Positions 288-53,830 of a stretch of 64,000 nt of DNA are shown in pieces. Made by a program: the position numbers and the translations under genes. Origin of the DNA: Patescibacteria group bacterium (GTDB lineage: Bacteria; Patescibacteriota; Patescibacteriia; Patescibacteriales; UBA12465); NCBI GenBank assembly GCA_041661685.1, contig JBAZTY010000001.1:64691-128690 (forward strand), given 5' to 3'. The notes under the pieces were generated by a model. That model did no database searches and was not told the origin of the DNA. It was given only the letters and a program-made list of their open reading frames with translations. How positions within the stretch are numbered: the first letter of the stretch is position 1; every line of letters begins with the position of its first letter.

Positions 288-1772
288 ATGAAGAAAAATA
301 AAAGTCAGAAAATTTTTTATCTTATTGGCATCAAAGGCGTCGGCATGACCATGCTGGCCCAGTTTTTAGCAGCGCATGGCCATAACGTTTCCGGTTCTGA
401 TATTATCGATTCTTTCATGACCGATAAGGTCTTAAAGACAGGGAAGATAAAAGTCTTATCGCCGTTCGCGATTGAAAATATTCCGGCTCGTCCAGACGTG
501 ATCATCTATTCTTCCGCTTTTAATGAGAAGAACAATCCGGAGATGGCCCACATTAAGAAGTATCAGGCGCTATTTAAGAATATCCCGGTTTTGGCTTACG
601 CCGAAGCTCTCGGCCAGATCTTTAATGAGTATTATGGCATTGCTGTCTGCGGTAGCCATGGCAAGACGACAACCTCCGCTTGGCTGGGCTATGTTCTGAT
701 GAAAGCCGGGAAGAAGCCGAATGTGCTCGTCGGTTCGCGCGTCCCTCAATTTAGCGGCAGCAGCCTGAAGGGTTCGTCGAAATACTTTGTCGCTGAAGTT
801 GATGAATATCAGAATAAGCTGCAATATTTCCGGCCCGCTGGCGTCGTACTCAATAATATCGATTATGATCATCCGGATTATTTTAAGACCAAGGCGGCCT
901 ACGCCCAAGTTTTTGTTGATTTTATCAAGAAGATTCCAGCTTCAGGTTTCCTAATCGTCAACAATCGCGATGAAGCTAGTCAGAAGATAAAGAAAAATTG
1001 CCGCGGCCGAGTCTATTCTTATGACTTAGCGCCGAAAGCTGAGACTTTTGTCGAAGCTGAAGAAGCTGTCGGTGGTAAATCAGAATATCTAGCCTATGAC
1101 TGGCGGTTGAAGAACGGCCATCAGATATTCAAAGTCGCTTATCGCGAGATCAGCCTGAAAGGCCAGACGCGCCTCGAAGCAGTCTCCGGCTTAGGAGAAT
1201 TTAAGATCCGTCTTTGGGGGAAACATAATGTGCTTAACGCGCTCGCGGTCATCGCTGCTAGCCGTGAATTGAAAGTGCCGCTGGACAAGATCAGAAGCGG
1301 TTTAGCGTTATTTACCGGTACCGAACGCCGCGCCCAGATTTTGGGAAAATATCACGGCGCTCTGATTATCGATGACTACGCGCATCATCCGACGGAAATA
1401 GCCGCGACTCTTTCCGGTTTGCGCGCGCATTATCCGGATAAGAAAATAATTACGGTTTTTCATCCGCATACTTTTACGCGCACTAAAGCTCTTTTTAAAG
1501 ACTTTGTGAAAAGCTTTGTCATGTCGGACGAATTAGTGATTCTAGATATTTACGGTTCGGCCCGGGAAAAACAGGGCGGAGTATCAAGCAGCCAATTAGC
1601 CGCCGCGATACTCAAATTAAATAAAGCTCGTAAGATAATCCAGCCAGTCAAGCATTTAGGCGCTATGAAGGAGGCGACTGCGTATCTGCGCCGGCATCTG
1701 ACCTCTAAAGATGTCTTGCTGCTGATGGGGGCCGGCGATGTCTTTAGGATCGGAGAAGACTTGCTAAAATAG
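288..1772 (+). CDS. murC: UDP-N-acetylmuramate--L-alanine ligase
   Basis: 494 aa. N-terminal GIKGVGMTMLAQFL dinucleotide-fold motif, Mur-ligase P-loop GSHGKTTT, DDYAHHP motif. Confidence 0.93.
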   Translation: MKKNKSQKIFYLIGIKGVGMTMLAQFLAAHGHNVSGSDIIDSFMTDKVLKTGKIKVLSPFAIENIPARPDVIIYSSAFNEKNNPEMAHIKKYQALFKNIPVLAYAEALGQIFNEYYGIAVCGSHGKTTTSAWLGYVLMKAGKKPNVLVGSRVPQFSGSSLKGSSKYFVAEVDEYQNKLQYFRPAGVVLNNIDYDHPDYFKTKAAYAQVFVDFIKKIPASGFLIVNNRDEASQKIKKNCRGRVYSYDLAPKAETFVEAEEAVGGKSEYLAYDWRLKNGHQIFKVAYREISLKGQTRLEAVSGLGEFKIRLWGKHNVLNALAVIAASRELKVPLDKIRSGLALFTGTERRAQILGKYHGALIIDDYAHHPTEIAATLSGLRAHYPDKKIITVFHPHTFTRTKALFKDFVKSFVMSDELVILDIYGSAREKQGGVSSSQLAAAILKLNKARKIIQPVKHLGAMKEATAYLRRHLTSKDVLLLMGAGDVFRIGEDLLK

Positions 1773-1797
1773 CAGAAATATTGTATTATTCTCATTT

Positions 1798-3588
1798 ATG
1801 ACCCAAGTAAACGAGAAAAAAAATGAGAAGGAGAGCATATCCTGGAAACGTTTCTGGATAGAATTATGGCGCTTATTAGCGTCTTTTAGGAAATTGTTCG
1901 GAACCATCACCCTCGTTATCTTGGCGGCGGCGCTTTTGGATTTAGGGAAGCCGTATATCTTGCAGCTGGTCATCGACAATCTGAATAATTTTTCCAATGA
2001 GAAGTTTCTCTTCTTGATCAAACTGATTGCTCTTTATTTAGCTACGGATGAAGTCCGCTCTTTCATCCAGTATTTGTCTGATCGTAAGATTTTGAGCTTA
2101 TTGGTAAAAGTGGAATATTTCTTGGGCATGAAGGCTCAAGAAAAATTAGTCTCGCTCAGCCTCGGCTACCACGAGCGCCAGAATACCGGATCTAAGATAA
2201 TCAAGATTGAGAAGGGAGTTGATAAGATTTCTGAATTTTTGAACAATATCTTCTGGGAAGTGCTCCCGACTGTCTTTCAGCTCGTCTTCACTCTCGTCGC
2301 TTTATTCTGGTCCGACTGGCGTATCGGCCTATCCTTCCTCATCTTCGCGCCGCTTTTCATCTTTATCACCTATTGGTCGAATAAGCGGATGTATCCGGTC
2401 ATGAAGGCGATTTTTCGCTACTATGAAGACGCTTCTGGCAAGATGGGGCAGGCGATCATCAATATCAACGCGGTTCAGTCTTTTGTCCAAGAAGAGAACG
2501 AGCTAAAAGGCTTCAGCCGCATCAAGGAGCGTATTCGCGACAATGAGAATAAACAATATGGCTGGATGATGAAGATCGGCTTAGGGCGTAATTTCATCGT
2601 CGATGTCGGCCGTTCCGCCGTTTTATTCCTCGGCGTTTATTTGGTCTATAAAGGTTTGATGACTATCGGCTCTTTGATTTTCGTCTTTACGCTCAGCGAA
2701 AAGGCTTATGCTTCTTTATATCGTTTGTCTCGTTTTTATGATCGTATGGAAAAAGGCCGGGAAGGCGTTAGCCGTCTGATTGCCTTATTTAATGAAGAGA
2801 GCGAGATAATTAATTCGCCGGACGGCTTAAAGCCGCAAGATATCAAAGGCGAAATCAGCTTTGACCACGCTTCTTTCTATTATAATATTAATAAGCGCCC
2901 CGCTGTCAGCGATCTAAATTTCACGATTCAATCGGGCGGCGTCACAGCGCTCGTCGGTCCTTCCGGCGGCGGCAAGACGACTATTGCCCGTTTAGCCTAT
3001 CGCCATTATGATCCTCAGAAAGGCCGTGTTTTGTTGGACGGAAAAGATTTGCGCGATTATGACTTGAAGAGCTTTAGGAAATTTTTAGCTATTGTCCCGC
3101 AAGAGGTAGAAATATTTGATCTGACTGTCGCAGAAAATATTGCCTACGCTCGGCCGGAAGCTACTCGCGAAGAGATAGTCGCGGCGGCTAAGATCGCCAA
3201 TGCCGATGAATTCATCAACAAGCTCGACAAGAGCTACGAAACGATGACTGGAGAAAGAGGCATAAAATTATCCGGCGGCCAGCGCCAGCGCCTCGGCATT
3301 GCTCGGGCGATTCTAGCTAATCCGCGCATCCTCATCTTTGATGAAGCGACTTCTAATCTTGATAGCCAGAGCGAAGTTTTAATTCAAGACGCGATGAAGA
3401 AGATCAGTCAGAATCGAACTATGATAATCATCGCCCATCGTTTAAGTACTATAAAACAAGCTGATAATATTATTGTCCTTGAAGGCGGCAAGGTGGCCGA
3501 GCAGGGCAGCCATAAGGAATTGGCTTCGGCTCAAGGCGGCCTATATGCCAAACTCTTGAAGCTGCAGGCGATGGGGGAAGTGGATTAA
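1798..3588 (+). CDS. Fused ABC exporter (TM permease domain + ATPase), MsbA/ABCB-like
   Basis: 596 aa. Hydrophobic N-terminal half, Walker A GPSGGGKTT, signature LSGGQRQR, Walker B ILIFDEATS. Confidence 0.9.
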   Translation: MTQVNEKKNEKESISWKRFWIELWRLLASFRKLFGTITLVILAAALLDLGKPYILQLVIDNLNNFSNEKFLFLIKLIALYLATDEVRSFIQYLSDRKILSLLVKVEYFLGMKAQEKLVSLSLGYHERQNTGSKIIKIEKGVDKISEFLNNIFWEVLPTVFQLVFTLVALFWSDWRIGLSFLIFAPLFIFITYWSNKRMYPVMKAIFRYYEDASGKMGQAIININAVQSFVQEENELKGFSRIKERIRDNENKQYGWMMKIGLGRNFIVDVGRSAVLFLGVYLVYKGLMTIGSLIFVFTLSEKAYASLYRLSRFYDRMEKGREGVSRLIALFNEESEIINSPDGLKPQDIKGEISFDHASFYYNINKRPAVSDLNFTIQSGGVTALVGPSGGGKTTIARLAYRHYDPQKGRVLLDGKDLRDYDLKSFRKFLAIVPQEVEIFDLTVAENIAYARPEATREEIVAAAKIANADEFINKLDKSYETMTGERGIKLSGGQRQRLGIARAILANPRILIFDEATSNLDSQSEVLIQDAMKKISQNRTMIIIAHRLSTIKQADNIIVLEGGKVAEQGSHKELASAQGGLYAKLLKLQAMGEVD

Positions 3589-3630
3589 TTAATATTTTTT
3601 GGTTTTTTGTGATATTTTAAAATACTAATC

Positions 3631-4419
3631 TTGAGTTTTATGTATAAAGGATTTACTTCTGAGGACTATAAAAAATATTTTAATCTTTCGGCAGAGTATT
3701 CTGTTTCTGGATTGCTGTCTTCTGGCACCTGGAACGAAGAAGAATATTTTAAAGAAATACATGAAGTTCTTAAAGGTTTGAACATTGGGTACTCATCTAA
3801 GAGATTGGAAGGATTTCTGAGTCATATATATGAGATTAAGATAGATGGCAAGATCTACTGGTTGAGTTCATTATATGGTGGTGTTATGTTATCAGAATAT
3901 ATTCATTTGGCCTGTCTTTTTGGATCAAAAAAGAATATTCATATAGGAAGTTGTGGAGGACTCTATCCGAATATGAAAACATTGGATTTTTTGATTCCGA
4001 GTTATAGCTATGGCGACGAGAGCACCACTAGAATGTATGATCGTAAAATAACTGATAACAAACATTTTCCCAATGAAAGTTTATCTAATTTTCTCGTAGG
4101 AAGATTGCCAGCTAAAAGCAAGATTTGGCGCGGGCCAGTTACAACTTGCCAGGCTATGTTAGGCGAAACTTTCGAAGATGTGGCCGCTTGGTCAAAAGAT
4201 GGCTATTATGGAGTAGACATGGAAACCTCCACCTTATTTTCTATTTCTAATTATTTTAAAGTTCCAAGCTCGGCGCTTTTATACGTGGCTGATAATTTAA
4301 TAGAAAATTTTACAGTACTCGATGAAGAGTTTGTAAATAATAAAAAAGTACGGGATGAGATAAAAAATAATGTTTATCGTACAGGTCTGCTAACCTTGAT
4401 TGAATACAGTCTAAGCTAG
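3631..4419 (+). CDS. PNP/UDP-family nucleoside phosphorylase-like protein
   Basis: 262 aa. GSCGGL, GVDMETSTLF and ALLYVADN segments resemble the purine/uridine phosphorylase fold. TTG start at 3631 or ATG at 3640. Visibly AT-rich gene. Confidence 0.55.
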   Translation: MSFMYKGFTSEDYKKYFNLSAEYSVSGLLSSGTWNEEEYFKEIHEVLKGLNIGYSSKRLEGFLSHIYEIKIDGKIYWLSSLYGGVMLSEYIHLACLFGSKKNIHIGSCGGLYPNMKTLDFLIPSYSYGDESTTRMYDRKITDNKHFPNESLSNFLVGRLPAKSKIWRGPVTTCQAMLGETFEDVAAWSKDGYYGVDMETSTLFSISNYFKVPSSALLYVADNLIENFTVLDEEFVNNKKVRDEIKNNVYRTGLLTLIEYSLS

Positions 4420-4585
4420 ATAAAATTTATTATATTCATGCCAGTTTTTTGGTCAGATATCTTTGATCTAGCCACCTTTAATTGTGATTGACAAAATCCA
4501 AATAAAGATGTTAAATGATATGAATCCCAAAAAAGGGAATTGTATCTTTAACAATTAAATTCTGAAATCAAAAAAACCAAGAGAT

Positions 4586-6010
4586 ATGAAGACTATTACT
4601 AAAAGAGAGAATGATTATTCACAGTGGTATCTGGATGTTATCGCTGCGGCTGACCTCGCCGAACACTCGGTCGTTAGGGGGTGCATGGTCATAAAACCAT
4701 ACGGGTATGCTATCTGGGAAAAAATGGTTAGCGTTATTGATTCCATGCTGAAAGAAAAAGGAGTCAAAAATGCTTATTTTCCTATTTTTATTCCCGAAAG
4801 CTTCTTAGAGAGGGAGAAAAAGCACGTTAAGGGATTCTCGCCAGAGTTGGCAGTGGTCACTCATGGCGGAGGCAACAAGCTCCAAGAACCGCTTATTGTC
4901 AGACCGACATCGGAGACGATAATTTACGACTCTTTTTCTAAATGGATTAATTCTTATCGCGATTTGCCTATGCTAATAAATCAATGGGCAAACGTCGTGC
5001 GTTGGGAAATGAGGCCTAGATTATTCCTGCGTACTACGGAATTCTTATGGCAAGAGGGTCACACAGCTCATGTTTCTCTAGAAGAGGCGGACAAGTACGC
5101 TCTCGATATTCTAAACAATGTTTATAAAAGATTCGCCGAAGATTATATGGCTATGCCTGTCTATACTGGGCAGAAGTCGGAAGGTGAAAAATTTGCCGGT
5201 GCTTTTAAAACTTATTGTATCGAGGCAATGATGCAGGATGGAAAATCTCTTCAAGCCGGAACGTCCCATAATTTATCTGATAATTTTTCTAAATCTTTTA
5301 ATGTTTCTTTTCTTGATGAAACCGGGAGAAAGAAGAATGTATTTCAGACAAGTTGGGGAGTTAGTACTAGATTGATTGGCGGTTTGATTATGAGTCATAG
5401 CGACGATAGGGGGCTTGTTCTGCCACCGAAGATAGCTCCGATTCATGTTGTTATTATACCCGTTAATCCAAATGAAAAGATTTTGGACACTATCCAATCA
5501 ATAAGGCAGAGCCTATCTGGTATTCCTGTTGAAGTCGACTTGAGAGACAATCTTAATCCTGGAGAAAAATATTATGAGTGGGAGAAGAAGGGAATCCCGA
5601 TCAGAATTGAAATCGGACCAAAAGATTTAGAAAAAGGAGAGATAGTTATGGTTCGTCGAGATTCTGGCGTTAAAAAATCTTGTCCTATTGCTGGAGTCAG
5701 ATTAACGATTGAGAAAACATTATTAGACATTCAGGAAAATCTTTTTCTCAAGGCGTTGGATAGAAGGCAGAAAAGTAATGGAAAGGCAGACTCTTGGATC
5801 GCGTTTGAACAGAAAATCAGATCCGGAGGCTACGTATTTGCACATTGGTGTGAAGGTGAGGATTGTGAGGCTGACATCAAAAAGAAAACTAAAGCCGTCA
5901 GTCGATTCTTATCTTTTGACGCCGATGAGGAAGGCGGTGTCCATGTTTGTATAAACTGCGGAAAAAATGTAGTCGAAAAGAAACGTTGGGCATTTGCTAA
6001 GGCTTATTAA
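4586..6010 (+). CDS. proS: Prolyl-tRNA synthetase, archaeal/eukaryote-like type
   Basis: 474 aa. N-terminus KRENDYSQWYLDVI...GCMVIKPYGYAIWE is typical of the short ProRS type. Class II core and a C-terminal Cys-rich Zn domain ending AKAY. Confidence 0.92.
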   Translation: MKTITKRENDYSQWYLDVIAAADLAEHSVVRGCMVIKPYGYAIWEKMVSVIDSMLKEKGVKNAYFPIFIPESFLEREKKHVKGFSPELAVVTHGGGNKLQEPLIVRPTSETIIYDSFSKWINSYRDLPMLINQWANVVRWEMRPRLFLRTTEFLWQEGHTAHVSLEEADKYALDILNNVYKRFAEDYMAMPVYTGQKSEGEKFAGAFKTYCIEAMMQDGKSLQAGTSHNLSDNFSKSFNVSFLDETGRKKNVFQTSWGVSTRLIGGLIMSHSDDRGLVLPPKIAPIHVVIIPVNPNEKILDTIQSIRQSLSGIPVEVDLRDNLNPGEKYYEWEKKGIPIRIEIGPKDLEKGEIVMVRRDSGVKKSCPIAGVRLTIEKTLLDIQENLFLKALDRRQKSNGKADSWIAFEQKIRSGGYVFAHWCEGEDCEADIKKKTKAVSRFLSFDADEEGGVHVCINCGKNVVEKKRWAFAKAY

Positions 6011-6037
6011 CAAACCAAAAAAGAAAGGAGCGAAAAA

Positions 6038-7198
6038 ATGTTTGATTCAGTAAGATTAGAGTTAACTGGCAGGTGTGATATGAAATGTCTTTACTGTCAC
6101 GCAGGAGAAAAAAATACTGCCTGTTATAATGAAGAGGAGCTATCTCATGAGAGATGGTTAGAAATTATTGCCGAATGTAAAGAGCTTGGAGTGAAAAATT
6201 TTACGCTTACCGGCGGAGAACCTTTCCTTTATAGTCGCTGGCCGGAAATAGTCGAAGCCTGCGGTCAGGAATCAAGAGTAGTCATCTCTACAAACGGAAA
6301 GCACTTTTCACGTAGCAATATTGAAATCATCTCTACTTTTCCTCAGATTAAAGAGTTTAGAACTAGTCTGGATGGGTTAGAGACGAATGACCTGATACGC
6401 GATGGTAGCAGCTATAAGTCCGCCCTGGAAAATATCAGGCTTCTTAAAACTTTGCTGCCCGATCGAAAGATCATGATCCAAACGGTGATTTATGAACAGA
6501 ATATCCCTGAGATTTCGCCGCTCTATGAAGAATTGAAAGGTATAGGGATTTACTGTTGGCGCTTAAGCCAGCTTTGGAAGACGGTTAGAACTCAGAAAAA
6601 TCGTCATATTGTGGATTTTTCTGATTATAACAAACTTTTTGATGTTTATGCTGAAATCATAAAAAAACATCAATCAGACGCCAAGCCCTTTCTCTTGAGG
6701 ATAGACAATGTTTATTATTCCTGGATAGATAAGGAGGATTATGCTCCAATGGACTTATTCGGTCATCCTTGCGAATATAATTTCGCCCATCTTTGCATTA
6801 ATGCCAACGGCGATTTAATTTTTTGTCCAGCCATGAATGTCAGCTATGGGTCTGTTAAGGAGCGCCAGATTAAAGATGTAGTAGAAAATTCTGAATGGTT
6901 CGATCGTTTCAAAAAAATTACTGTTAAATCGCTCGGTTGCGGAAATTGCCGTTACATTAAGATATGTGGTGGAGGTTGCCGCGCCGATGCCTTAAGATGG
7001 TTAGGAAAGACGGAAGATATTGACCCCAATTCTTGTTGCATGATGCCTAGAATTGAAAACCTCATTCTGCCTTTGCTTGGAGAGGAAGAAAGACTCGCGT
7101 TTTCTGCCTTGATAAATAAAGATGGAATATATCCCCGTTTTTGTGGAGATAATATTGAAGTAGTAGTTAGTTCATTCTTAAAAAAAGGAGAACAGTAA
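6038..7198 (+). CDS. Radical SAM enzyme with C-terminal SPASM-like Cys cluster
   Basis: 386 aa. CDMKCLYCH (CxxxCxxC) near the N-terminus and C-terminal CGNCRYIKICGGGCRADA plus further Cys. Strong AAGGAG RBS 8 nt upstream. Starts 27 nt after the proS stop. Confidence 0.85.
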   Translation: MFDSVRLELTGRCDMKCLYCHAGEKNTACYNEEELSHERWLEIIAECKELGVKNFTLTGGEPFLYSRWPEIVEACGQESRVVISTNGKHFSRSNIEIISTFPQIKEFRTSLDGLETNDLIRDGSSYKSALENIRLLKTLLPDRKIMIQTVIYEQNIPEISPLYEELKGIGIYCWRLSQLWKTVRTQKNRHIVDFSDYNKLFDVYAEIIKKHQSDAKPFLLRIDNVYYSWIDKEDYAPMDLFGHPCEYNFAHLCINANGDLIFCPAMNVSYGSVKERQIKDVVENSEWFDRFKKITVKSLGCGNCRYIKICGGGCRADALRWLGKTEDIDPNSCCMMPRIENLILPLLGEEERLAFSALINKDGIYPRFCGDNIEVVVSSFLKKGEQ

Positions 7199-7254
7199 CA
7201 TGGTACTCAAAAACAAACAGCCGAGCTAGCCTGAGCGCAGTTCGCTAGAAGTAA

Positions 7255-7290
7255 GGCCAAACATGACGAAATGTTTGGCCTTTTTATTTT
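7255..7290 (+). terminator. Intrinsic terminator after the radical SAM gene
   Basis: 10-bp stem GGCCAAACAT / ATGTTTGGCC with loop GACGAA, followed by TTTTTATTTT. Confidence 0.7.
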
Positions 7291-7315
7291 GTAAATATTA
7301 CTCGTAGTTTACTGA

Positions 7316-8362
7316 ATGAAATTTTTCGATTATAATAAAAATATGCTTAATATAGAGAAAAACAAGGATTTAACTCCCTATACGACCCTGAAAATCGGCG
7401 CTCCGGCCGAGTTTTTCGCTGTTATCAAGAGCCGAGAAGATCTGGATGAAGCCATTCTATGGGCGAAGAGAAATAAGAAAGTTATCTGGGTTTTGGGCGG
7501 AGGTTCCAACGTCTTGATTTCTAAGAAAGTAAAGGGCTTGGTCTTGAAGAATGAAATCAAGGGGATGGAGATAAAGAAAGATGATGCTTTATCTGCTATC
7601 GTTGAAGCTGAGTCGGGAGAAAGCTGGACTCGTTTTGTTAATTTTACCGTTGAAAATAATCTAAGCGGATTGGAGAATCTGTTTTTGATCTATGGAACTG
7701 TTGGCGCTGCTCCGGTCCAGAATATCGGCGCTTATGGTATGGAATTAAAAGACGTCTTTCATTCGCTCGTAGCGATTGATTTGAAAACTGGAAGAGAGAA
7801 AATTTTTAAATCAGCTGATTGCCGTTTTGGTTATCGCGACAGTATTTTTAAGAATAAGCTGAAGGGCCGTTACTTTATTTATTCCGTGGCTTTGAAATTG
7901 AGCAAGAAGCCAGAGCTTAAATTAGACTACGGTTCGCTGCGAGAAAAATTATTAGAGCAGGGGATTGAGAATCCTTCTTCAAGAGACGTTATTGCCGTCA
8001 TCACTGAGATTAGGAACAGTAAATTGCCGAATCCGGGCGTGTTACCTAACGCTGGATCTTTTTTTAAGAATATAGAAGTGAGCATGGCTGTTTATAAGAG
8101 GTTATTAAAAAAATACCCGGCCATGCCGTCTTTTCCGGTCTCGACGATGCGCATTAAGATTCCGGCTGGCTGGCTGATAGAAACTGCCGGCTTTAAGGGC
8201 AAGAGATTCCAGTCAGTCGGCATGTATGAGAAGCAGGCTCTAATCTTCGTCAATTATGGCGGTGCGACCGCCAGCCAGGCTACCGCATTAGTCAAGAAGA
8301 TAAAAGTTGCTATCAAGAAAAAATTCGGCCTTGATTTAGAAGAGGAAGTTAATATAATATAA
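7316..8362 (+). CDS. murB: UDP-N-acetylenolpyruvoylglucosamine reductase
   Basis: 348 aa. PYTTLKIGAPAEFF, GGGSNVL and the FAD-binding MurB pattern, with a C-terminal MurB domain. Confidence 0.9.
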   Translation: MKFFDYNKNMLNIEKNKDLTPYTTLKIGAPAEFFAVIKSREDLDEAILWAKRNKKVIWVLGGGSNVLISKKVKGLVLKNEIKGMEIKKDDALSAIVEAESGESWTRFVNFTVENNLSGLENLFLIYGTVGAAPVQNIGAYGMELKDVFHSLVAIDLKTGREKIFKSADCRFGYRDSIFKNKLKGRYFIYSVALKLSKKPELKLDYGSLREKLLEQGIENPSSRDVIAVITEIRNSKLPNPGVLPNAGSFFKNIEVSMAVYKRLLKKYPAMPSFPVSTMRIKIPAGWLIETAGFKGKRFQSVGMYEKQALIFVNYGGATASQATALVKKIKVAIKKKFGLDLEEEVNII

Positions 8363-8393
8363 AGAGGCTGATATAATAAAATCTCCTAAACAT

Positions 8394-10220
8394 ATGACCT
8401 CAAGCGAACTCCGCCAAAAATATCTGGATTTTTTTAAGAGCTATGATCACGCTGTGATTTCTAGCGCTTCTTTGATTCCGGAAAATGATCCGACTGTCCT
8501 GTTCACGACCGCCGGCATGCATCCTTTAGTCCCATATCTATTGGGCGAAAAGCATCCGGCTGGAAAGCGCCTGACCAACGCCCAGAAATGCATTCGCACC
8601 GGCGATATTGAAGAAGTCGGCGACGCGACTCATCATACTTTTTTTGAAATGATGGGTAACTGGTCATTGGGAGATTATTTTAAGAAAGAAGCTATTAATT
8701 TTAGCTGGGAATTTTTAACTAGTGATAAATGGCTCAATCTTGATAAGGATCGCTTGGCTGTTTCCGTCTTTAAGGGCGATACTGATGCGCCTTTTGACGA
8801 GGAAGCTTATAATTTATGGGTAGAAATATTTAAGCAAAATAATTTGCCGTTAGAACGCATCGCTAAATTGCCGAAAAAAAATAATTGGTGGGGCCCGGCT
8901 GGAATAACCGGACCGTGCGGACCCGATACAGAAATATTTTATTGGACCGGCGAGGCCGCGCATACCCCCGGCAGTTTCAATGATGATAATGATTCTTGGG
9001 TGGAGATCTGGAATAACGTTTTCATGCAATATAATAAAAATGTCGCCGGAAAATTCGAGCCTTTAGTCCAGAAAAATGTAGACACTGGCTTGGGCCTGGA
9101 AAGAGTACTCGCTGTCATGAATGGCCTGGATGATAATTACAAAACCGATTTATTCATTAATATCATTAAGAAGATAGAAGAGCTGAGTAGCCATAAATAT
9201 GGGGAGAATACGGAAACAACGCGCGCGATGCGCATCATCGCCGACCACCTCAAGGCCGCAACTTTTATTGTTGGCGACAATCGCGGAGTCGCTCCGTCTA
9301 ATACTGATCAAGGTTATGTTGTTCGTCGTTTAATTAGGCGCGCTATTCGCTATGGACGCCAATTGGGTATCGCTAAGGAACTATGGACGGCCGATATCGC
9401 CACTATCGCGATTAATGATTATAAAGATATCTATCCGGAATTTGAAAAAAATAAAGCTTTCATTCTTGACAATCTGAATAAGGAAGAAGAAAAATTTAAT
9501 CGGACTTTAGAAAAAGGCCTGATTGAGTTCAATAAATTATCCGTTAACGGCATCAGCGGGGAAGAAGCCTTCAATCTTTATCAGAGCTACGGTTTCCCAT
9601 TGGAAATAACCGAAGAATTAGCTAAAGAGAAAGGCGTGACTATCGATCGCGCTGGTTTTGAAGTTGAACTCAAAAAGCATCAAGACCTATCTCGCACCGC
9701 TTCGGCCGGAAAATTTAAAGGCGGTTTGGCTGACGCCGGCGAGGAGACTGTTAAGCTGCATACGGCTGCGCATTTGCTTCTGGCCGCTTTGCGCCGTGTC
9801 TTGGGAGATCATGTTTTACAGAAGGGCGCTAACATCACCCCCGAGCGTTTGCGCCTTGATTTTTCTCATCCAGAAAAGATGACGCCTGATCAGATAAGCC
9901 AGGTCGAGAATCTCGTTAATGAAGCTATCAAGAGCGATTTTAAAGTAATCTGCGAAGAATTAACTTTAGAAGAAGCAAAAAGGCGGGGCGCGATGGGAGT
10001 TTTTGATTCGAAATATGGAGAAAAAGTGAAGGTTTATACGGTCTGTCATTTGGGAGAGGGTAATAATCTTTCCCCAGAATCTCTAAAATCAGCCTTTTCG
10101 CAGGAAATCTGCGGCGGCCCCAATGTAGAAAATACGCAGATATTAGGACATTTTTCTATTCAGAAGGAAGAGGCTTCAAGTGCCGGAGTTAGGAGAATTA
10201 AGGCTATCTTAACGAAATAA
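8394..10220 (+). CDS. alaS: Alanyl-tRNA synthetase, short form lacking the C-Ala domain
   Basis: 608 aa. N-terminus SSELRQKYLDFFKSYDH, FTTAGM, editing-domain HTAAHLL and AGVRRIKA motifs. Ends right after the editing domain. Confidence 0.92.
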   Translation: MTSSELRQKYLDFFKSYDHAVISSASLIPENDPTVLFTTAGMHPLVPYLLGEKHPAGKRLTNAQKCIRTGDIEEVGDATHHTFFEMMGNWSLGDYFKKEAINFSWEFLTSDKWLNLDKDRLAVSVFKGDTDAPFDEEAYNLWVEIFKQNNLPLERIAKLPKKNNWWGPAGITGPCGPDTEIFYWTGEAAHTPGSFNDDNDSWVEIWNNVFMQYNKNVAGKFEPLVQKNVDTGLGLERVLAVMNGLDDNYKTDLFINIIKKIEELSSHKYGENTETTRAMRIIADHLKAATFIVGDNRGVAPSNTDQGYVVRRLIRRAIRYGRQLGIAKELWTADIATIAINDYKDIYPEFEKNKAFILDNLNKEEEKFNRTLEKGLIEFNKLSVNGISGEEAFNLYQSYGFPLEITEELAKEKGVTIDRAGFEVELKKHQDLSRTASAGKFKGGLADAGEETVKLHTAAHLLLAALRRVLGDHVLQKGANITPERLRLDFSHPEKMTPDQISQVENLVNEAIKSDFKVICEELTLEEAKRRGAMGVFDSKYGEKVKVYTVCHLGEGNNLSPESLKSAFSQEICGGPNVENTQILGHFSIQKEEASSAGVRRIKAILTK

Positions 10221-40456: not shown

Positions 40457-41758
40457 ATGTCAAGGATATTGATTGCTGACGCAAAAAAACAGGGAAATGG
40501 CGAAGTGACTGTCTCTGGTTGGGTAAGGAATCTGCGTGCCCATAAAGGCATAGTTTTTGTGGATTTGCGCGATATTTCCGGGGCGATGCAGGTTGTTTTC
40601 GTGTCTGGCCAAGGCGGCTACGAATTGGCGGAAAAATTGACTCTGGAAAGCGTTATTACTGTCACCGGAACTTTACAAGAGAAACCAGCCAAGAAGAATG
40701 ATCCTAATCCGGTTAAGGATTTTGAATTAGCGGCTTCGAGCGCAGAGCTTATCTCTTTAGCGAATGAGAATTTACCTATTCCTGTCCTGACAAAAGCTGA
40801 TAATGAAGCCAACTCCGAGAATCGTTTCGACTGGCGCTGGCTGGATCTGCGCCAGGAAGAGCATCAGCTTATTTTTAAGGTCTGGACTAAGTTAGAAGCT
40901 GGTTGCCGTGAATATTGGTTAAAGAATAATTTCATCCAGATCTATACCCCATGTTTTATGAGCACGGCTTCAGAAACTGGTTCAGAAGTATTTGAGGTTA
41001 AATATTTTGACCGGAAAGCTTATCTAGCTCAGTCCCCGCAATTTTACAAACAGATGGCTATGGCCTCTGGTTTAGAAAAAGTTTTCATGGTTGGAACTGT
41101 TTTTCGCGCTGAACCCTCTTTTACTAGCCGCCACGTGACTGAATTCACCGGTTGGGATTTAGAGGTTTCTTTCATCGATTATAATGAAGTGATGAGCATC
41201 GAGGAGGATTTATTGATTTCTGGATTTAAAAAAGTTAAAGAAGATCTAAATATTGAAGTAGATGTTCCAACTAAGCCTTTCCCAAAGATAACTCTGGCGG
41301 CCGCCAAAGAAAAATTAAAAGCGGCCGGAATTAAGAGCGAAAAAGATTATGATTTTTCTACCGAGGAAGAGAAGGAATTAGGCCACATTATTAAGAAGGA
41401 AACTGGCCATGATTTTGTTTTTGTGACTGATTATCCGATTGCGGCGCGCCCTTTTTATCATATGCGCCATCAGGATAGTCCGGGATTAACTAAGAGTTTT
41501 GATTTATTATATCGCGGCCTAGAAATAACGACCGGATCACAGCGTGAGCACCGGATAGAAGTTTTAGAGAAACAGGCGATTGAGAAGGGCATGAATCTGG
41601 AAGAATTGAAAGATTATTTGAATTTTTTTCGTTACGGCTGCCCGAGCCATAGCGGTATCGGCATGGGCCCGGGACGCATTGTTATGAAGATGCTGGATCT
41701 GCCTAGCGTTAAGGAAGCTTGTTTCTTGCCGAGGGATGTCAAGAGATTAACTCCGTAA
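40457..41758 (+). CDS. aspS: Aspartyl-tRNA synthetase, archaeal-type short form
   Basis: 433 aa. N-terminal OB anticodon-binding domain, class II motifs (FRAEPS..., [20 protein letters not shown]). Confidence 0.9.
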
Positions 41759-41774
41759 TTTATTATTTTTTTAT

Positions 41775-43166
41775 ATGCCTTATACTCTCATTAAATCATT
41801 ATACAAAGAGACTAGCCGCTATCTGAATAAGAAAATAAATGTTGCCGGTTGGGTTCGTACTGCGCGCTCTTCTAAAGAATTCGGCTTTATCGAGCTTAAC
41901 GACGGTTCTTTCTTCAAGAGCCTGCAAATCGTCTTTGAGAGCAGCTTAGAAAATTTTTCCGAGGTAGAAAATATCAGCGTCGGCTCGTCTTTAGAAATAG
42001 AAGGCGAACTCGTCGAATCTCCCGCGGCCGGACAGGCTTTCGAGCTCAAGGCCAAGAAGATTACTATAATCAATCGCGCGCCGGAAGATTATCCCCTTCA
42101 GAAGAAGAAGCATAGCTTCGAGTTCTTGCGCGAGATTGCGCATCTGCGCGGCCGCAGCAATACTTTTTCCGCCGTTTTTCGCCTGCGCTCTTCGCTCAGC
42201 TACGCTATCCATAAATTTTTTCAGGAAGAAGGCTTCTCTTATGTCCATACCCCGATAATTTCCACGAGCGACGCCGAGGGCGCGGGCGAGATGTTCCAGG
42301 TGACGACTTTAGATTTAAAAAATGCGCCTAAGGATAAGAAAGGCGAAATAGATTACAGCGAAGATTTTTTCGGCAAGAAGGCGGGACTCACTGTTAGCGG
42401 CCAGCTTAATGCCGAAGCTTTAGTGATGGGCTTAAATAAAGTTTATACTTTCGGCCCGACTTTTCGGGCGGAAAATTCGAATACGACTCGCCACGCTTCC
42501 GAGTTCTGGATGATGGAGCCGGAAATGGCTTTCGCCGATCTAGAAGACAATATGATTTTGGCGGAGAAGATGCTGAAATATCTGATTGTCCATGTCTTGA
42601 AAGAATTGCCGGAAGAGATGGAATTTTTCAATAAGTTCATCGACACGACTCTGATGGAGCGTTTGAATAATATCGTTGATTCTGAATTCGGCCGCGTCAC
42701 TTATACTGAAGCGATCAGCATATTAGAAAAGTCCGGCGAGAAATTCGCTTTCCCGGTAAAATGGGGGATTGATTTGCAGACCGAGCATGAACGCTACTTG
42801 ACTGATAAAGTCTTTAAGAAGCCGGTTTTCGTCATTGATTATCCGAAAGATATTAAAGCTTTCTATATGCGCCTGAACGATGACGGTCGAACCGTGGCTG
42901 CGATGGATCTATTAGTTCCTGGCATCGGCGAGCTTATCGGCGGCAGCCAGAGAGAAGAGAACTTGGATAAATTGATCAAGCGTATGGAAGAGATGAATAT
43001 GAAATTAGAAGATTACCAGTGGTATCTGGATCTGCGCCGCTTCGGTTCCGTCAAGCACGCCGGTTTCGGACTCGGCTTCGAGCGAGCGATCATGTATCTC
43101 TCGGGCATGGCCAATATCCGCGACGTCATCCCGTTTCCGCGCACGCCGAAGAATGCTGAATTTTAA
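41775..43166 (+). CDS. asnS: Asparaginyl-tRNA synthetase
   Basis: 463 aa. [50 protein letters not shown]. Confidence 0.93.
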
Positions 43167-53252: not shown

Positions 53253-53381
53253 TTCGTTTTCCTCCGATTTTTATGATTAATTGAAATTTTTAAAGTACAT
53301 TTGTAACTAATAACAATATCATAACAATAGATAATTGTCAATGTAATAACAAAAAATAGACTTAAAAAAGCCTATTTTATG

Positions 53382-53401
53382 CTTGCTCCCGGGGTCGGAT
53401 T
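53382..53401. repeat. 20-nt direct repeat (tRNA-proximal copy: T-loop through discriminator plus 4 nt)
   Basis: CTTGCTCCCGGGGTCGGATT is identical to 51822-51841. Confidence 0.85.
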
Positions 53402-53695
53402 CGAACCGACGACCAATTGGTTACACTTATCCACTAATTTCTTAATGGGGTGGACTATATCATCATCCGCCAAAACGGATGCGAGGCGCTTCCTGCTCTA
53501 GAATAGAGAAGTACTCCCTTTCGGGATAGTCTCTGAACCTTGCCTGAACTTCAGGCCTTGGCTGCTGATTACCTTATCCTTACGGATTTAGGCTTCCAGC
53601 AATTCACCTCGTTATTCGACCTCAATTACTTGAGGAAGCTGCGTTTAGAACTAACGTGTTCACAGCCAACTGCGCTACCGCTGCGCTACCCGGGA
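53386..53695 (-). tRNA. tRNA-Asn(GUU) interrupted in the anticodon loop by a group I intron
   Basis: Minus-strand exons are TCCCGGG TA GCGC AGCGGTA GCGC A GTTGG CTGT (53695-53662) and TAA CCAAT TGGTC GTCGG TTCGAAT CCGAC CCCGGGA G (53423-53386). Joined, they form a 72-nt cloverleaf with loop CUGUUAA, U1-A72 and G73 as in E. coli tRNA-Asn. CCA is not encoded. Confidence 0.8.
53424..53661 (-). ncRNA. Group I intron (238 nt, no ORF) within tRNA-Asn
   Basis: Conserved core strings GTTCAGAGACTA (53538-53527) and GATATAGTCC (53461-53452), with GACTAT/ATAGTC pairing (P7). GNRA hairpins CCTCAA-GTAA-TTGAGG, ATCC-GTAA-GGAT and TCCC-GAAA-GGGA. Guide sequence GCAGCU pairs with exon GGCUGU with a U-G wobble at the 5' splice site. 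The last intron base is G. Confidence 0.8.
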
Positions 53696-53830
53696 ATATT
53701 AAATTGTCCTTCAAAAAACAAAAATGCTTTAAAACATTTTATGTCTTTATTCTAGCAAATACCCGACTTATGTCAATATTAGCGTTTTCAGGCTTATTTT
53801 GGTAAAATAATAATAATTAACGAAAAAATT

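Follow-up and report, generated by a model that had tools for sequence, protein, structure and literature searches.

The question raised by this locus is whether the 64-kb window, by which we mean the whole stretch of 64,000 nucleotides that was analysed, contains a tRNA gene, and which amino acid that gene serves. ARAGORN run with default settings reported no tRNA anywhere in the window. The initial annotation had read the minus strand between 53695 and 53386 as a gene for tRNA-Asn(GUU) in which a 238-nt group I intron separates anticodon positions 35 and 36, and its exon and intron coordinates and sequences proved exact on re-extraction. The 5' exon (53662–53695, minus strand; TCCCGGGTAGCGCAGCGGTAGCGCAGTTGGCTGT) comprises the 5' strand of the acceptor, the D arm, the 5' strand of the anticodon stem and C32 U33 G34 U35. 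The 3' exon (53386–53423, minus strand; TAACCAATTGG...CCCGGGAG) comprises U36 A37 A38, the 3' strand of the anticodon stem, the variable loop, the T arm, the 3' strand of the acceptor and G73, and does not encode CCA. Between them lies an intron of 238 nt without an open reading frame (53424–53661, minus strand), which starts GAACACG and ends AAGTG, its omega G being at 53424. Once the intron was deleted, ARAGORN called a clean tRNA-Asn(GTT) of 73 nt. Taken with the evidence below, the locus is in our view very probably a functional gene for tRNA-Asn(GUU) from a Falkowbacteria-like CPR genome, cut between U35 and U36 by a self-splicing, ORF-less group I intron with an IA-type layout.

The identity of the insert as a group I intron was supported by its match to Rfam family RF00028, which spanned the full model (1–253) with 84.5 bits (E = 4.5e-20; gathering score 50) and was the sole Rfam match in the 64-kb window. 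One search pattern recovered 85 Patescibacteria contigs carrying a related intron, and in all 80 of the relatives that could be parsed, representing species-level genomes, the 5' exon ended CTGT, the intron ended GTG, the 3' exon began TAA and the tRNA had U1, A72 and G73. The named relatives are all Patescibacteria metagenome-assembled genomes (Falkowbacteria, Paceibacterota and Parcubacteria). The best match was a Candidatus Falkowbacteria contig (JAPLVZ010000011.1; 93.6% identical), with which the flanks of the locus share 76–84% identity.

Covariation among these relatives supports both the intron helices and the split cloverleaf. In 48 sequences, the cloverleaf helices read across the intron were 99.7% paired, and compensatory changes affected 15 of the 21 pairs. 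The 71 pairs of the intron helices were 88.5% paired, versus 33–44% when partners were slid by 1–3 columns; 40 of these pairs showed double changes, and none of 500 shuffles reached the observed values. Since short consensus motifs can recur, general caution calls for considering a chance resemblance, or some other structured RNA or mobile element. Given the strength of the sole Rfam match, the 85 homologous contigs found by one pattern and covariation far exceeding both the shuffled and the slid controls, the probability of such an explanation is negligible.

To place the intron on a group I secondary structure, the Rfam alignment required one correction, as it puts P1 and P2 wrongly upstream, at 53740–53696, when the true P1 and P2 occupy 53667–53620 (all intron coordinates refer to the minus strand). 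The 5' strand of P1 (53661–53667) consists of exon G30 G31 C32 U33 G34 U35 and intron G1, with the 5' splice site after U35 (53662), and its 3' strand is the internal guide sequence C-GCAGCU (53637–53643), of which GCAGC is present in 48/48 sequences. The guide and the U•G wobble at the 5' splice site had been predicted at the outset; the CUGU/GCAG pairing with that wobble is found in every one of the 48 sequences. Intron nucleotide 1 covaries with the base 5' of GCAG (GC 26, CG 7, AU 3, GU 2, UA 1, UG 1). P2 follows as the hairpin CCUCAA-GUAA-UUGAGG (53620–53635; 96.9% paired, with two-sided changes in 6/6 pairs). The 5' strand of P3, CGAGGUG (53605–53611), pairs with 53488–53482 (98.5% paired; double changes in 4/7 pairs), and its 3' strand, CGCCUCG (53482–53488), is identified by this covariation. 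P4 (UGCUGG/UCAGCA), 100% paired, encloses P5 and P5a (CCU..AUCC-GUAA-GGAU..AGG) within the Rfam alignment (53563–53601); P5 and P5a vary in length between relatives, and P5a, at 50.9% paired, has poor support among them. In the adjoining P6-P6a hairpin (53538–53561), P6a was 84.6% paired with double changes in 6/6 pairs.

J6/7 (UUCAGA) and the 5' strand of P7, the R-like GACUAU, are invariant (53526–53537) and lie in the RF00028 match; J8/7 (AUGAU) and the 3' strand of P7, the S-like AUAGUC (53453–53463), were placed by RF00028 and the alignment. P7 as originally drawn from GACUAU and AUAGUC forms 6 bp in 48/48 sequences, a count partly imposed by the search pattern; because the pattern partly fixes the invariance of P7 and P7.1, neither contributes covariation evidence. 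Two extra hairpins, P7.1 (CCC-GAAA-GGG) and P7.2 (CUUCUCUA-UUC-UAGAG..GAAG), occupy 53489–53525, between P7 and the 3' strand of P3. The inner helix of P7.2, CUCUA-UUC-UAGAG, was 89.4% paired with double changes in 5/5 pairs, and its outer 3 bp, at 37.8% paired, are poorly supported among relatives. P8 (CAUCCG-UUUUGG-CGGAUG; 53464–53481) was 90.9% paired with double changes in 5/6 pairs, and P9 (CCAUUAA-GAAA-UUAGUGG; 53431–53448), with double changes in 6/7 pairs, is followed by the tail AUAAGUG. The intron ends in GUG in 48/48 sequences, in agreement with the terminal G assigned in the initial annotation. The GNRA-capped hairpins with GUAA, GUAA and GAAA loops were also correctly recognized, although their number is four rather than three: P2 (GUAA), P5a (GUAA), P7.1 (GAAA) and P9 (GAAA).

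The initial annotation had likened the core to the R and S elements of Tetrahymena. The group I core itself stands, but the comparison with Tetrahymena, and hence with an IC-type intron, does not, as it misses the IA-type P7.1 and P7.2. Phage introns of subgroup IA, such as T4 td and Twort orf142, carry P7.1 and P7.2 in the segment linking P7 to P3' in the Michel and Westhof classification. Compared by layout, the window intron resembles these phage introns in its two extra hairpins and in the association with small homing endonucleases lodged in peripheral loops; the phage introns sit in protein-coding genes, whereas the window intron lies in a tRNA gene. Judged from the P7.1/P7.2 anatomy and the published classification of relatives, its layout appears typical of subgroup IA; 25 of 28 introns at position 35/36 have been classed as IA (PMC13011429). 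In the same study, 81% of bacterial tRNA introns were assigned to IC and none of the Patescibacteria ones were.

One element of the original model was not borne out. A P10 helix had been proposed between GUUA near the 5' end of the intron and UAAC in the 3' exon. Among 47 ORF-less introns (46 relatives and the window's own) the 4-bp complement occurred in 9, versus 6.1 expected from shuffling, which is the level of chance. The closest relative (L004) no longer has it, and it is also absent from the experimentally validated homologue in GCA_016700035.1. P10 is not obligatory for group I introns.

As the junctions carry a UGUG/GUGU repeat, the splice sites can formally be placed in two ways, and the identity of the tRNA depends on which is used. 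With introns allowed, ARAGORN called the unspliced locus as tRNA-Thr(UGU) with an intron at 33/34, placing the boundaries at GGCU|GUGAAC (5' exon to intron) and GAUAAG|UGUAACC (intron to 3' exon). With either set of junctions, the 5' splice site is preceded by U and the intron ends in G. This 2-nt ambiguity and the competing call that it produces were overlooked in the earlier reading. The geometry of P1 distinguishes the two: under the threonine assignment U33 would stand opposite an A of the guide rather than a G, while the invariant U•G (48/48) falls at U35. The body of the tRNA is likewise that of tRNA-Asn. The U1-A72 and G73 ends highlighted by the initial annotation are each kept in 48/48 sequences, and the best annotated matches of the ligated exons were tRNA-Asn genes of E. 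coli records and phages. When metagenome contigs were searched with a pattern that left the anticodon open, all 121 uninterrupted tRNAs with the same body had a GTT anticodon and none had TGT. The nearest uninterrupted tRNA-Asn (L092) is 95.8% identical and has the same anticodon arm; an exact intron-less allele of the window's tRNA body had 0 matches in the metagenome contigs. At the related loci there were 5 tRNAs of any kind, with no tRNA-Thr among them for comparison. Finally, a homologue with an identical anticodon arm has been spliced and its product sequenced, giving 35/36 (PMC13011429). On the grounds of P1 geometry, tRNA body identity and this published experiment we rejected tRNA-Thr(UGU), which we regard as highly improbable.

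That homologue, from GCA_016700035.1, belongs to a set of 15 Patescibacteria tRNA-Asn introns at 35/36 described by Nakagawa et al. (bioRxiv 10.1101/2025.07.03.662931; mSystems 2026, PMC13011429). Its precursor self-spliced in vitro at 35/36 upon initiation by GTP, and the ligated tRNA was sequenced; changing the omega G to C abolished production of mature tRNA (PMC13011429). Where the two can be aligned, this precursor is 81% identical to the window's, and its junction context is the same (GTTGGCTGT before the intron, GTG at its end and TAACCAATTGG after it). By analogy, we would expect the window's own copy to self-splice as well.

The window locus shares with the published class its Patescibacteria host, tRNA-Asn(GUU), the 35/36 site, the CUGU, GUG and UAA junction sequences, the GCAG guide, an ORF-less size class of ~205–312 nt and the ARAGORN miscall as Thr(UGU) at 33/34. 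The published examples show 81–85% identity to it over aligned positions, and two from Paceibacteria (GCA_016699245.1 and GCA_026016225.1) have the P7.1 motif UCCC-NNNN-GGGA in common with the window. Unlike these examples, the window locus is a distinct sequence from a Falkowbacteria-like genome outside the set of GTDB species representatives; it matched none of the 15 tRNA-Asn entries of Table S3 (PMC13011429), and three long sub-strings of it had no match in the accessible part of the supplement. According to Nakagawa et al., who cite it together with the Asn/Thr ambiguity, a class termed 'Asn.4Ug' already appeared in Williams' 2020 preprint (PMC13011429). It is a bioinformatic class of the same kind, in which tRNA-Asn is cut behind the fourth base of the anticodon loop, position −1 being U and omega being G; that work included no experiment and did not centre on Patescibacteria. 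More distant parallels are the introns of cyanobacterial and plastid tRNA-Leu(UAA) (34/35), Azoarcus tRNA-Ile and Agrobacterium tRNA-Arg, which are also self-splicing group I introns of the anticodon loop, form P1 from anticodon-loop bases and usually lack an ORF. Those introns differ from the window's in tRNA and position and are of the IC3 type, without P7.1 and P7.2.

The P1 loop suggests how the intron came to be ORF-less. L1 (53644–53660, minus strand; AACACGUUAGUUCUAAA) includes the GUUA once proposed for P10, and relatives bearing a homing endonuclease gene have ~310 extra nt located exactly at this site. Another relative (L024) retains the last ~23 nt of an endonuclease ORF. L1 is thus probably what is left of an HNH endonuclease ORF that has been lost, and the intron most likely descended from a form with an HNH homing endonuclease in its P1 loop. 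No sense-strand ORF of at least 20 aa was found within the intron, in keeping with the absence of an endonuclease ORF reported at the outset.

Loss of the homing endonuclease is what might be expected of a decaying, splicing-dead relic in a genome where an uninterrupted tRNA-Asn elsewhere decodes asparagine, and the 64 kb examined leaves room for such a gene. Against a relic, the core helices, guide, U•G wobble and terminal G are all intact, the cloverleaf built by the exons is perfect, and the arrangement has been kept with compensatory changes over 80 species-level genomes. Intron-bearing and intron-less copies with the same anticodon also seldom share one genome, and in GCA_016700035.1 the intron-bearing tRNA-Asn gene is the only copy (PMC13011429). 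A strong promoter-like site, TTGACA-16 nt-(TG)TAGAAT (53749–53776, minus strand), ends 53 nt ahead of the first tRNA nucleotide; in a consensus scan it had 11/12 matches and an extended −10 TG, and it may serve to transcribe the gene. We therefore consider a relic very unlikely. The gene is presumably the genome's only tRNA-Asn. On the 3' side of the gene no intrinsic terminator passed the scan criteria; what lies there is only an A/T-rich hairpin with a run of T behind it. The window also encodes asparaginyl-tRNA synthetase, as the initial annotation had recognized (asnS, 41775–43166, plus strand; NCBIfam NF003037 equivalog 692.6 bits, cutoff 414; TIGR00457 638.4 bits). A NUDIX protein is encoded in the neighbourhood of the tRNA-Asn locus.

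For a functional, intron-bearing tRNA-Asn gene, these features suggest the following course of maturation. The whole gene would be transcribed as one precursor, in which C32–U35 would pair with the guide GCAGCU to form P1, placing U35•G at the 5' splice site; here P1 would be lengthened by G30-G31 and intron G1. The folded core (P3-P8, P4-P6, P7.1/P7.2 and P9) would hold free guanosine in P7, and the guanosine would attack after U35. The terminal G (53424) would then take its place in P7, and U35 would attack the 3' splice site, so that exon ligation would yield the anticodon loop CUGUUAA. Because the gene lacks the CCA end, the termini of the spliced RNA would still have to be processed and CCA added before charging, presumably by the AsnRS whose gene lies 10 kb away.

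The initial annotation was aware of no bacterial group I intron in tRNA-Asn and of no tRNA introns described for CPR-like genomes. Novelty does not hold, as the class is published and its splicing demonstrated (PMC13011429). Patescibacteria tRNA-Asn introns, their location at 35/36, the miscall to which they give rise and their ability to splice are all in the literature, so the window locus is an added instance rather than a discovery. It illustrates a practical consequence: because default tRNA finders miss the gene and intron-aware settings report tRNA-Thr(UGU), tRNA-Asn would be counted as missing from such a genome. For several genomes that carry such introns, tRNAscan-SE detects no tRNA-Asn, and the same 2-nt miscall by ARAGORN/tFind has been recorded for tRNA-Asn introns (PMC13011429). 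If the gene is indeed the sole tRNA-Asn, all asparagine decoding would hang on guanosine-dependent self-splicing. Nakagawa et al. raised for Patescibacteria introns generally the idea of a GTP valve (PMC13011429); that the window's gene is the sole tRNA-Asn and that its dependence on splicing acts as an RNA-level valve, tying the supply of tRNA-Asn to the cell's GTP or guanosine status, is a speculative and unlikely proposition. The only direct support for it in the present data is that an ORF-less intron has been retained long-term over many lineages. The locus adds another case in which the ultra-small genomes of Patescibacteria retain self-splicing introns in essential translation genes.

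With default settings, ARAGORN called zero tRNA genes in the whole 64-kb window. The sole tRNA present is split by an intron, and standard annotation would therefore report none. On the minus strand, the 5' exon (TCCCGGGTAGCGCAGCGGTAGCGCAGTTGGCTGT; 53695-53662) comprises the acceptor strand, the D arm, the 5' strand of the anticodon stem and C32 to U35, and the 3' exon (TAACCAATTGGTCGTCGGTTCGAATCCGACCCCGGGAG; 53423-53386) runs from U36 to G73 with no encoded CCA. The 238-nt intron between them (53661-53424) begins with G and ends in GUG, placing the terminal G predicted by the initial annotation at 53424. When 53424-53661 was removed, ARAGORN returned a 73-nt tRNA-Asn(GTT). An Rfam search of the 64-kb window identified RF00028, the group I intron family, as the sole family at or above threshold (84.5 bits, gathering score 50, E = 4.5e-20, full model covered). 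Its alignment placed the core from P3 to P9 correctly, misplaced P1 and P2 upstream, at 53740-53696, and read the 5' exon as inserted sequence; the actual P1 and P2 occupy 53667-53620. On its sense strand the intron has no ORF reaching 20 aa, in keeping with the earlier description of an intron that lacks a homing endonuclease ORF, and an antisense ORF of 71 codons had no Pfam match. The Rfam match, the ARAGORN call on the spliced exons and the covariation described below confirm the observation made in the initial annotation and support its interpretation as a tRNA-Asn(GUU) gene split between anticodon positions 35 and 36 by a group I intron.

The initial annotation overlooked a 2-nt ambiguity at the junctions, which read GGCUGU|GA on the 5' side and AAGUG|UAACC on the 3' side. 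If both splice sites are moved 2 nt upstream, a U still precedes the 5' site, the intron still ends in G, and the product becomes tRNA-Thr(UGU) with an intron at 33/34, exactly the call that ARAGORN makes when introns are allowed. The same ARAGORN/tFind miscall has been reported by Nakagawa et al. (mSystems 2026, PMC13011429; bioRxiv July 2025). We rejected the Thr reading on the basis of P1 geometry, end features, an anticodon-open test and a published experiment. In P1, the internal guide GCAGCU pairs with GGCUGU and puts U35 in the U•G wobble proposed for the 5' splice site; the CUGU/GCAG pairing and this wobble are invariant across 48 aligned sequences, which comprise the locus in the window, 46 relatives that lack an ORF and the validated intron from the literature, whereas the splice-site U of a tRNA-Thr would face an A. 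The next P1 pair, between intron nucleotide 1 and the base 5' of GCAG, covaries (GC 26, CG 7, AU 3, and others). The unusual U1-A72 and G73 ends are likewise invariant in all 48 sequences, and the best matches to the ligated exons are genes annotated as tRNA-Asn in E. coli records and phages. A pattern holding the conserved tRNA body constant, with the anticodon free to vary, recovered at least 121 uninterrupted tRNAs from metagenome contigs, with GTT in 121/121 matches listed; the closest among these (L092) is 95.8% identical to the ligated exons and has an identical anticodon arm. Finally, sequencing of the ligated tRNA from a homologue whose anticodon arm is identical showed splicing at 35/36 (PMC13011429).

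The secondary structure of the tRNA-Asn intron was derived from the window sequence and the Rfam alignment, and its pairs were then counted on the 48-sequence alignment. Across the 71 intron pairs, 88.5% of cells were paired versus 33-44% when partners were slid by 1-3 columns; changes on both sides were found in 40 pairs, and 0/500 shuffles reached any observed measure. These double changes fall in P2 (6/6 pairs), P3 (4/7), P6a (6/6), the inner helix of P7.2 (5/5), P8 (5/6) and P9 (6/7). P4, P6, P7 and P7.1 vary little or not at all and are uninformative, the invariance of P7 and P7.1 being partly imposed by the search pattern and neutral as evidence. Relatives give no support for P5a (50.9% paired) or for the three outer base pairs of P7.2 (37.8%). 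In the cloverleaf formed across the intron, pairing reaches 99.7%, and 15 of the 21 pairs show double changes, including 5/5 in the anticodon stem and 6/7 in the acceptor. The GUAA, GUAA and GAAA loops described initially were recovered, but four GNRA tetraloops are present rather than three (P2 GUAA, P5a GUAA, P7.1 GAAA and P9 GAAA). Conservation does not extend to the suggested P10 (GUUA pairing with UAAC). Among 47 ORF-less introns (46 relatives and the window's own), 9 have a P1 loop that contains a 4-bp complement of the 3' exon, where shuffling predicts 6.1; the closest relative carries AUUA in place of GUUA, and the P1 loop of the experimentally validated intron is just 5 nt. Two hairpins, CCC-GAAA-GGG and CUCUA-UUC-UAGAG, lie between P7 and the 3' strand of P3. 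In the Michel-Westhof scheme two such hairpins are a hallmark of subgroup IA, and the classical bacterial tRNA introns are of the IC3 type; by this hairpin anatomy the window intron has an IA layout, not IC3. These data document the anatomy, homology and covariation of the locus.

To find relatives, one genome per GTDB species was scanned for a motif that covers P7, P7.1 and the S-like element, and 85 contigs matched. All informatively named contigs are Patescibacteria (Falkowbacteria, Paceibacterota, Parcubacteria, Vogelbacteria, Kaiserbacteria, Zambryskiibacteria, Moraniibacteria, Doudnabacteria and Peribacteria), and the intron lies at CTGT|...GTG|TAA in an Asn-type tRNA in 80/80 loci with both exons parsable. 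The closest relative, JAPLVZ010000011.1 from a Candidatus Falkowbacteria MAG, matches at 93.6% across the whole 310 nt, and its flanking sequence is 76-84% identical to other regions of the window. The window thus derives from a Falkowbacteria-like genome distinct from the species representatives in the scanned collection, and the original guess of a CPR-like host was right. Many TPA_asm MAG records with this Patescibacteria-type intron bear the title 'uncultured Gammaproteobacteria' or 'Bdellovibrionales' (for example loci L008, L015, L017, L020, L039, L056 and L072); the organism labels of records so titled are probably unreliable. The sole IMG/VR match (L208, IMGVR_UViG_3300025600_000123) has the same split tRNA-Asn at 1217-1528, with a 239-nt intron. 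Genes for a large serine recombinase, a Rep ORF2/G2P protein and a Zot-like ATPase (1468-8932) overlap the tRNA 3' end and continue from there, and the arrangement suggests integration of an inovirus-like element at a Patescibacteria host's tRNA-Asn gene.

ORF-less introns account for 46/80 of the relatives (209-344 nt), and the other 34/80 (532-670 nt) carry an HNH-type ORF in the P1 loop. These ORFs span 73-125 codons, some cut short, with CxxC...HH...CxxCH motifs and a Pfam HNH score of 20.3 bits, slightly below the cutoff of 21.4. Their final codons (GTG CAC GAA GGT TCT ACG CAG CTT CC) read through the guide into P2, such that the sequence encoding the C-terminus …VHEGSTQLP overlaps the ribozyme. 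In L024 (97-419), whose intron is ORF-less, the final ~23 nt of the ORF remain, and the window P1 loop (GAACACGTTAGTTCTAAAC; 53644-53660) keeps just the two ends and looks like a further-decayed remnant. These remnants suggest that the window intron arose by deletion from one that carried the endonuclease. L014 and L074, which are syntenic with the window, still have the endonuclease gene; introns of 546-566 nt occur at these two loci and at L064, L008, L023 and L046. A TGCTATAAT-like extended -10 motif lies within the first ~35 nt of endonuclease-bearing introns (L014, L074, L008 and others), upstream of the ORF start, and could serve as the endonuclease gene's own promoter.

A strong promoter-like site on the minus strand (53776-53749; TTGACA, 16 nt, TG-TAGAAT; 11/12 matches) ends 53 nt upstream of the tRNA. 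A terminator scan near the gene found nothing that met its criteria. Just past the tRNA on the same strand (53340-53385), a hairpin rich in A/T (AAAATAGGC…GTCTATTTT) precedes a T run; it fails the scan's G+C criterion yet could still terminate transcription. The window also contains asnS, as noted initially (41775-43166; equivalog score 692.6 bits, cutoff 414), and, directly upstream, an archaeal-type aspartate--tRNA(Asn) ligase (40457-41758; non-discriminating AspRS equivalog, 452.7 bits). Judging from these sequences, the genome may have both direct and indirect routes to Asn-tRNA(Asn).

In the mechanism considered most likely, the precursor would be transcribed and the ribozyme would fold, P1 would present U35•G, and attack after U35 would come from a free guanosine docked in P7. 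The terminal G (53424) would then occupy the guanosine site, and exon ligation would give the loop CUGUUAA. Since the gene does not encode CCA, the ends would have to be trimmed and CCA added before charging by AsnRS. We infer catalysis by the window's copy from a spliced homologue, the GCA_016700035.1 tRNA-Asn, which spliced in vitro upon GTP addition to give a sequenced ligated tRNA and gave no mature tRNA when omega G, the last intron nucleotide, was mutated to C (PMC13011429). That intron and the window's share exactly the same GTTGGCTGT|...GTG|TAACCAATTGG context.

Among 95 complete Patescibacteria genomes, the same study reported group I introns at 35/36 in 15 tRNA-Asn(GUU) and 3 tRNA-Asp(GUC) genes. 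It classed 25/28 introns at this position as IA and described four tRNA-Asn introns that contain HNH endonuclease genes. According to PMC13011429, Williams 2020 (bioRxiv 10.1101/2020.01.27.920355) listed the class as 'Asn.4Ug'; the preprint itself describes 17 new tRNA/position classes. The statement in the initial annotation that no intron was known in tRNA-Asn, or in any CPR tRNA, is therefore out of date. The window sequence is absent from the 15 published tRNA-Asn entries, and the Table S3 sequences match its precursor at 81-85% over aligned positions. Novelty is not supported; rather, the window intron is one more member of a described and experimentally validated class.
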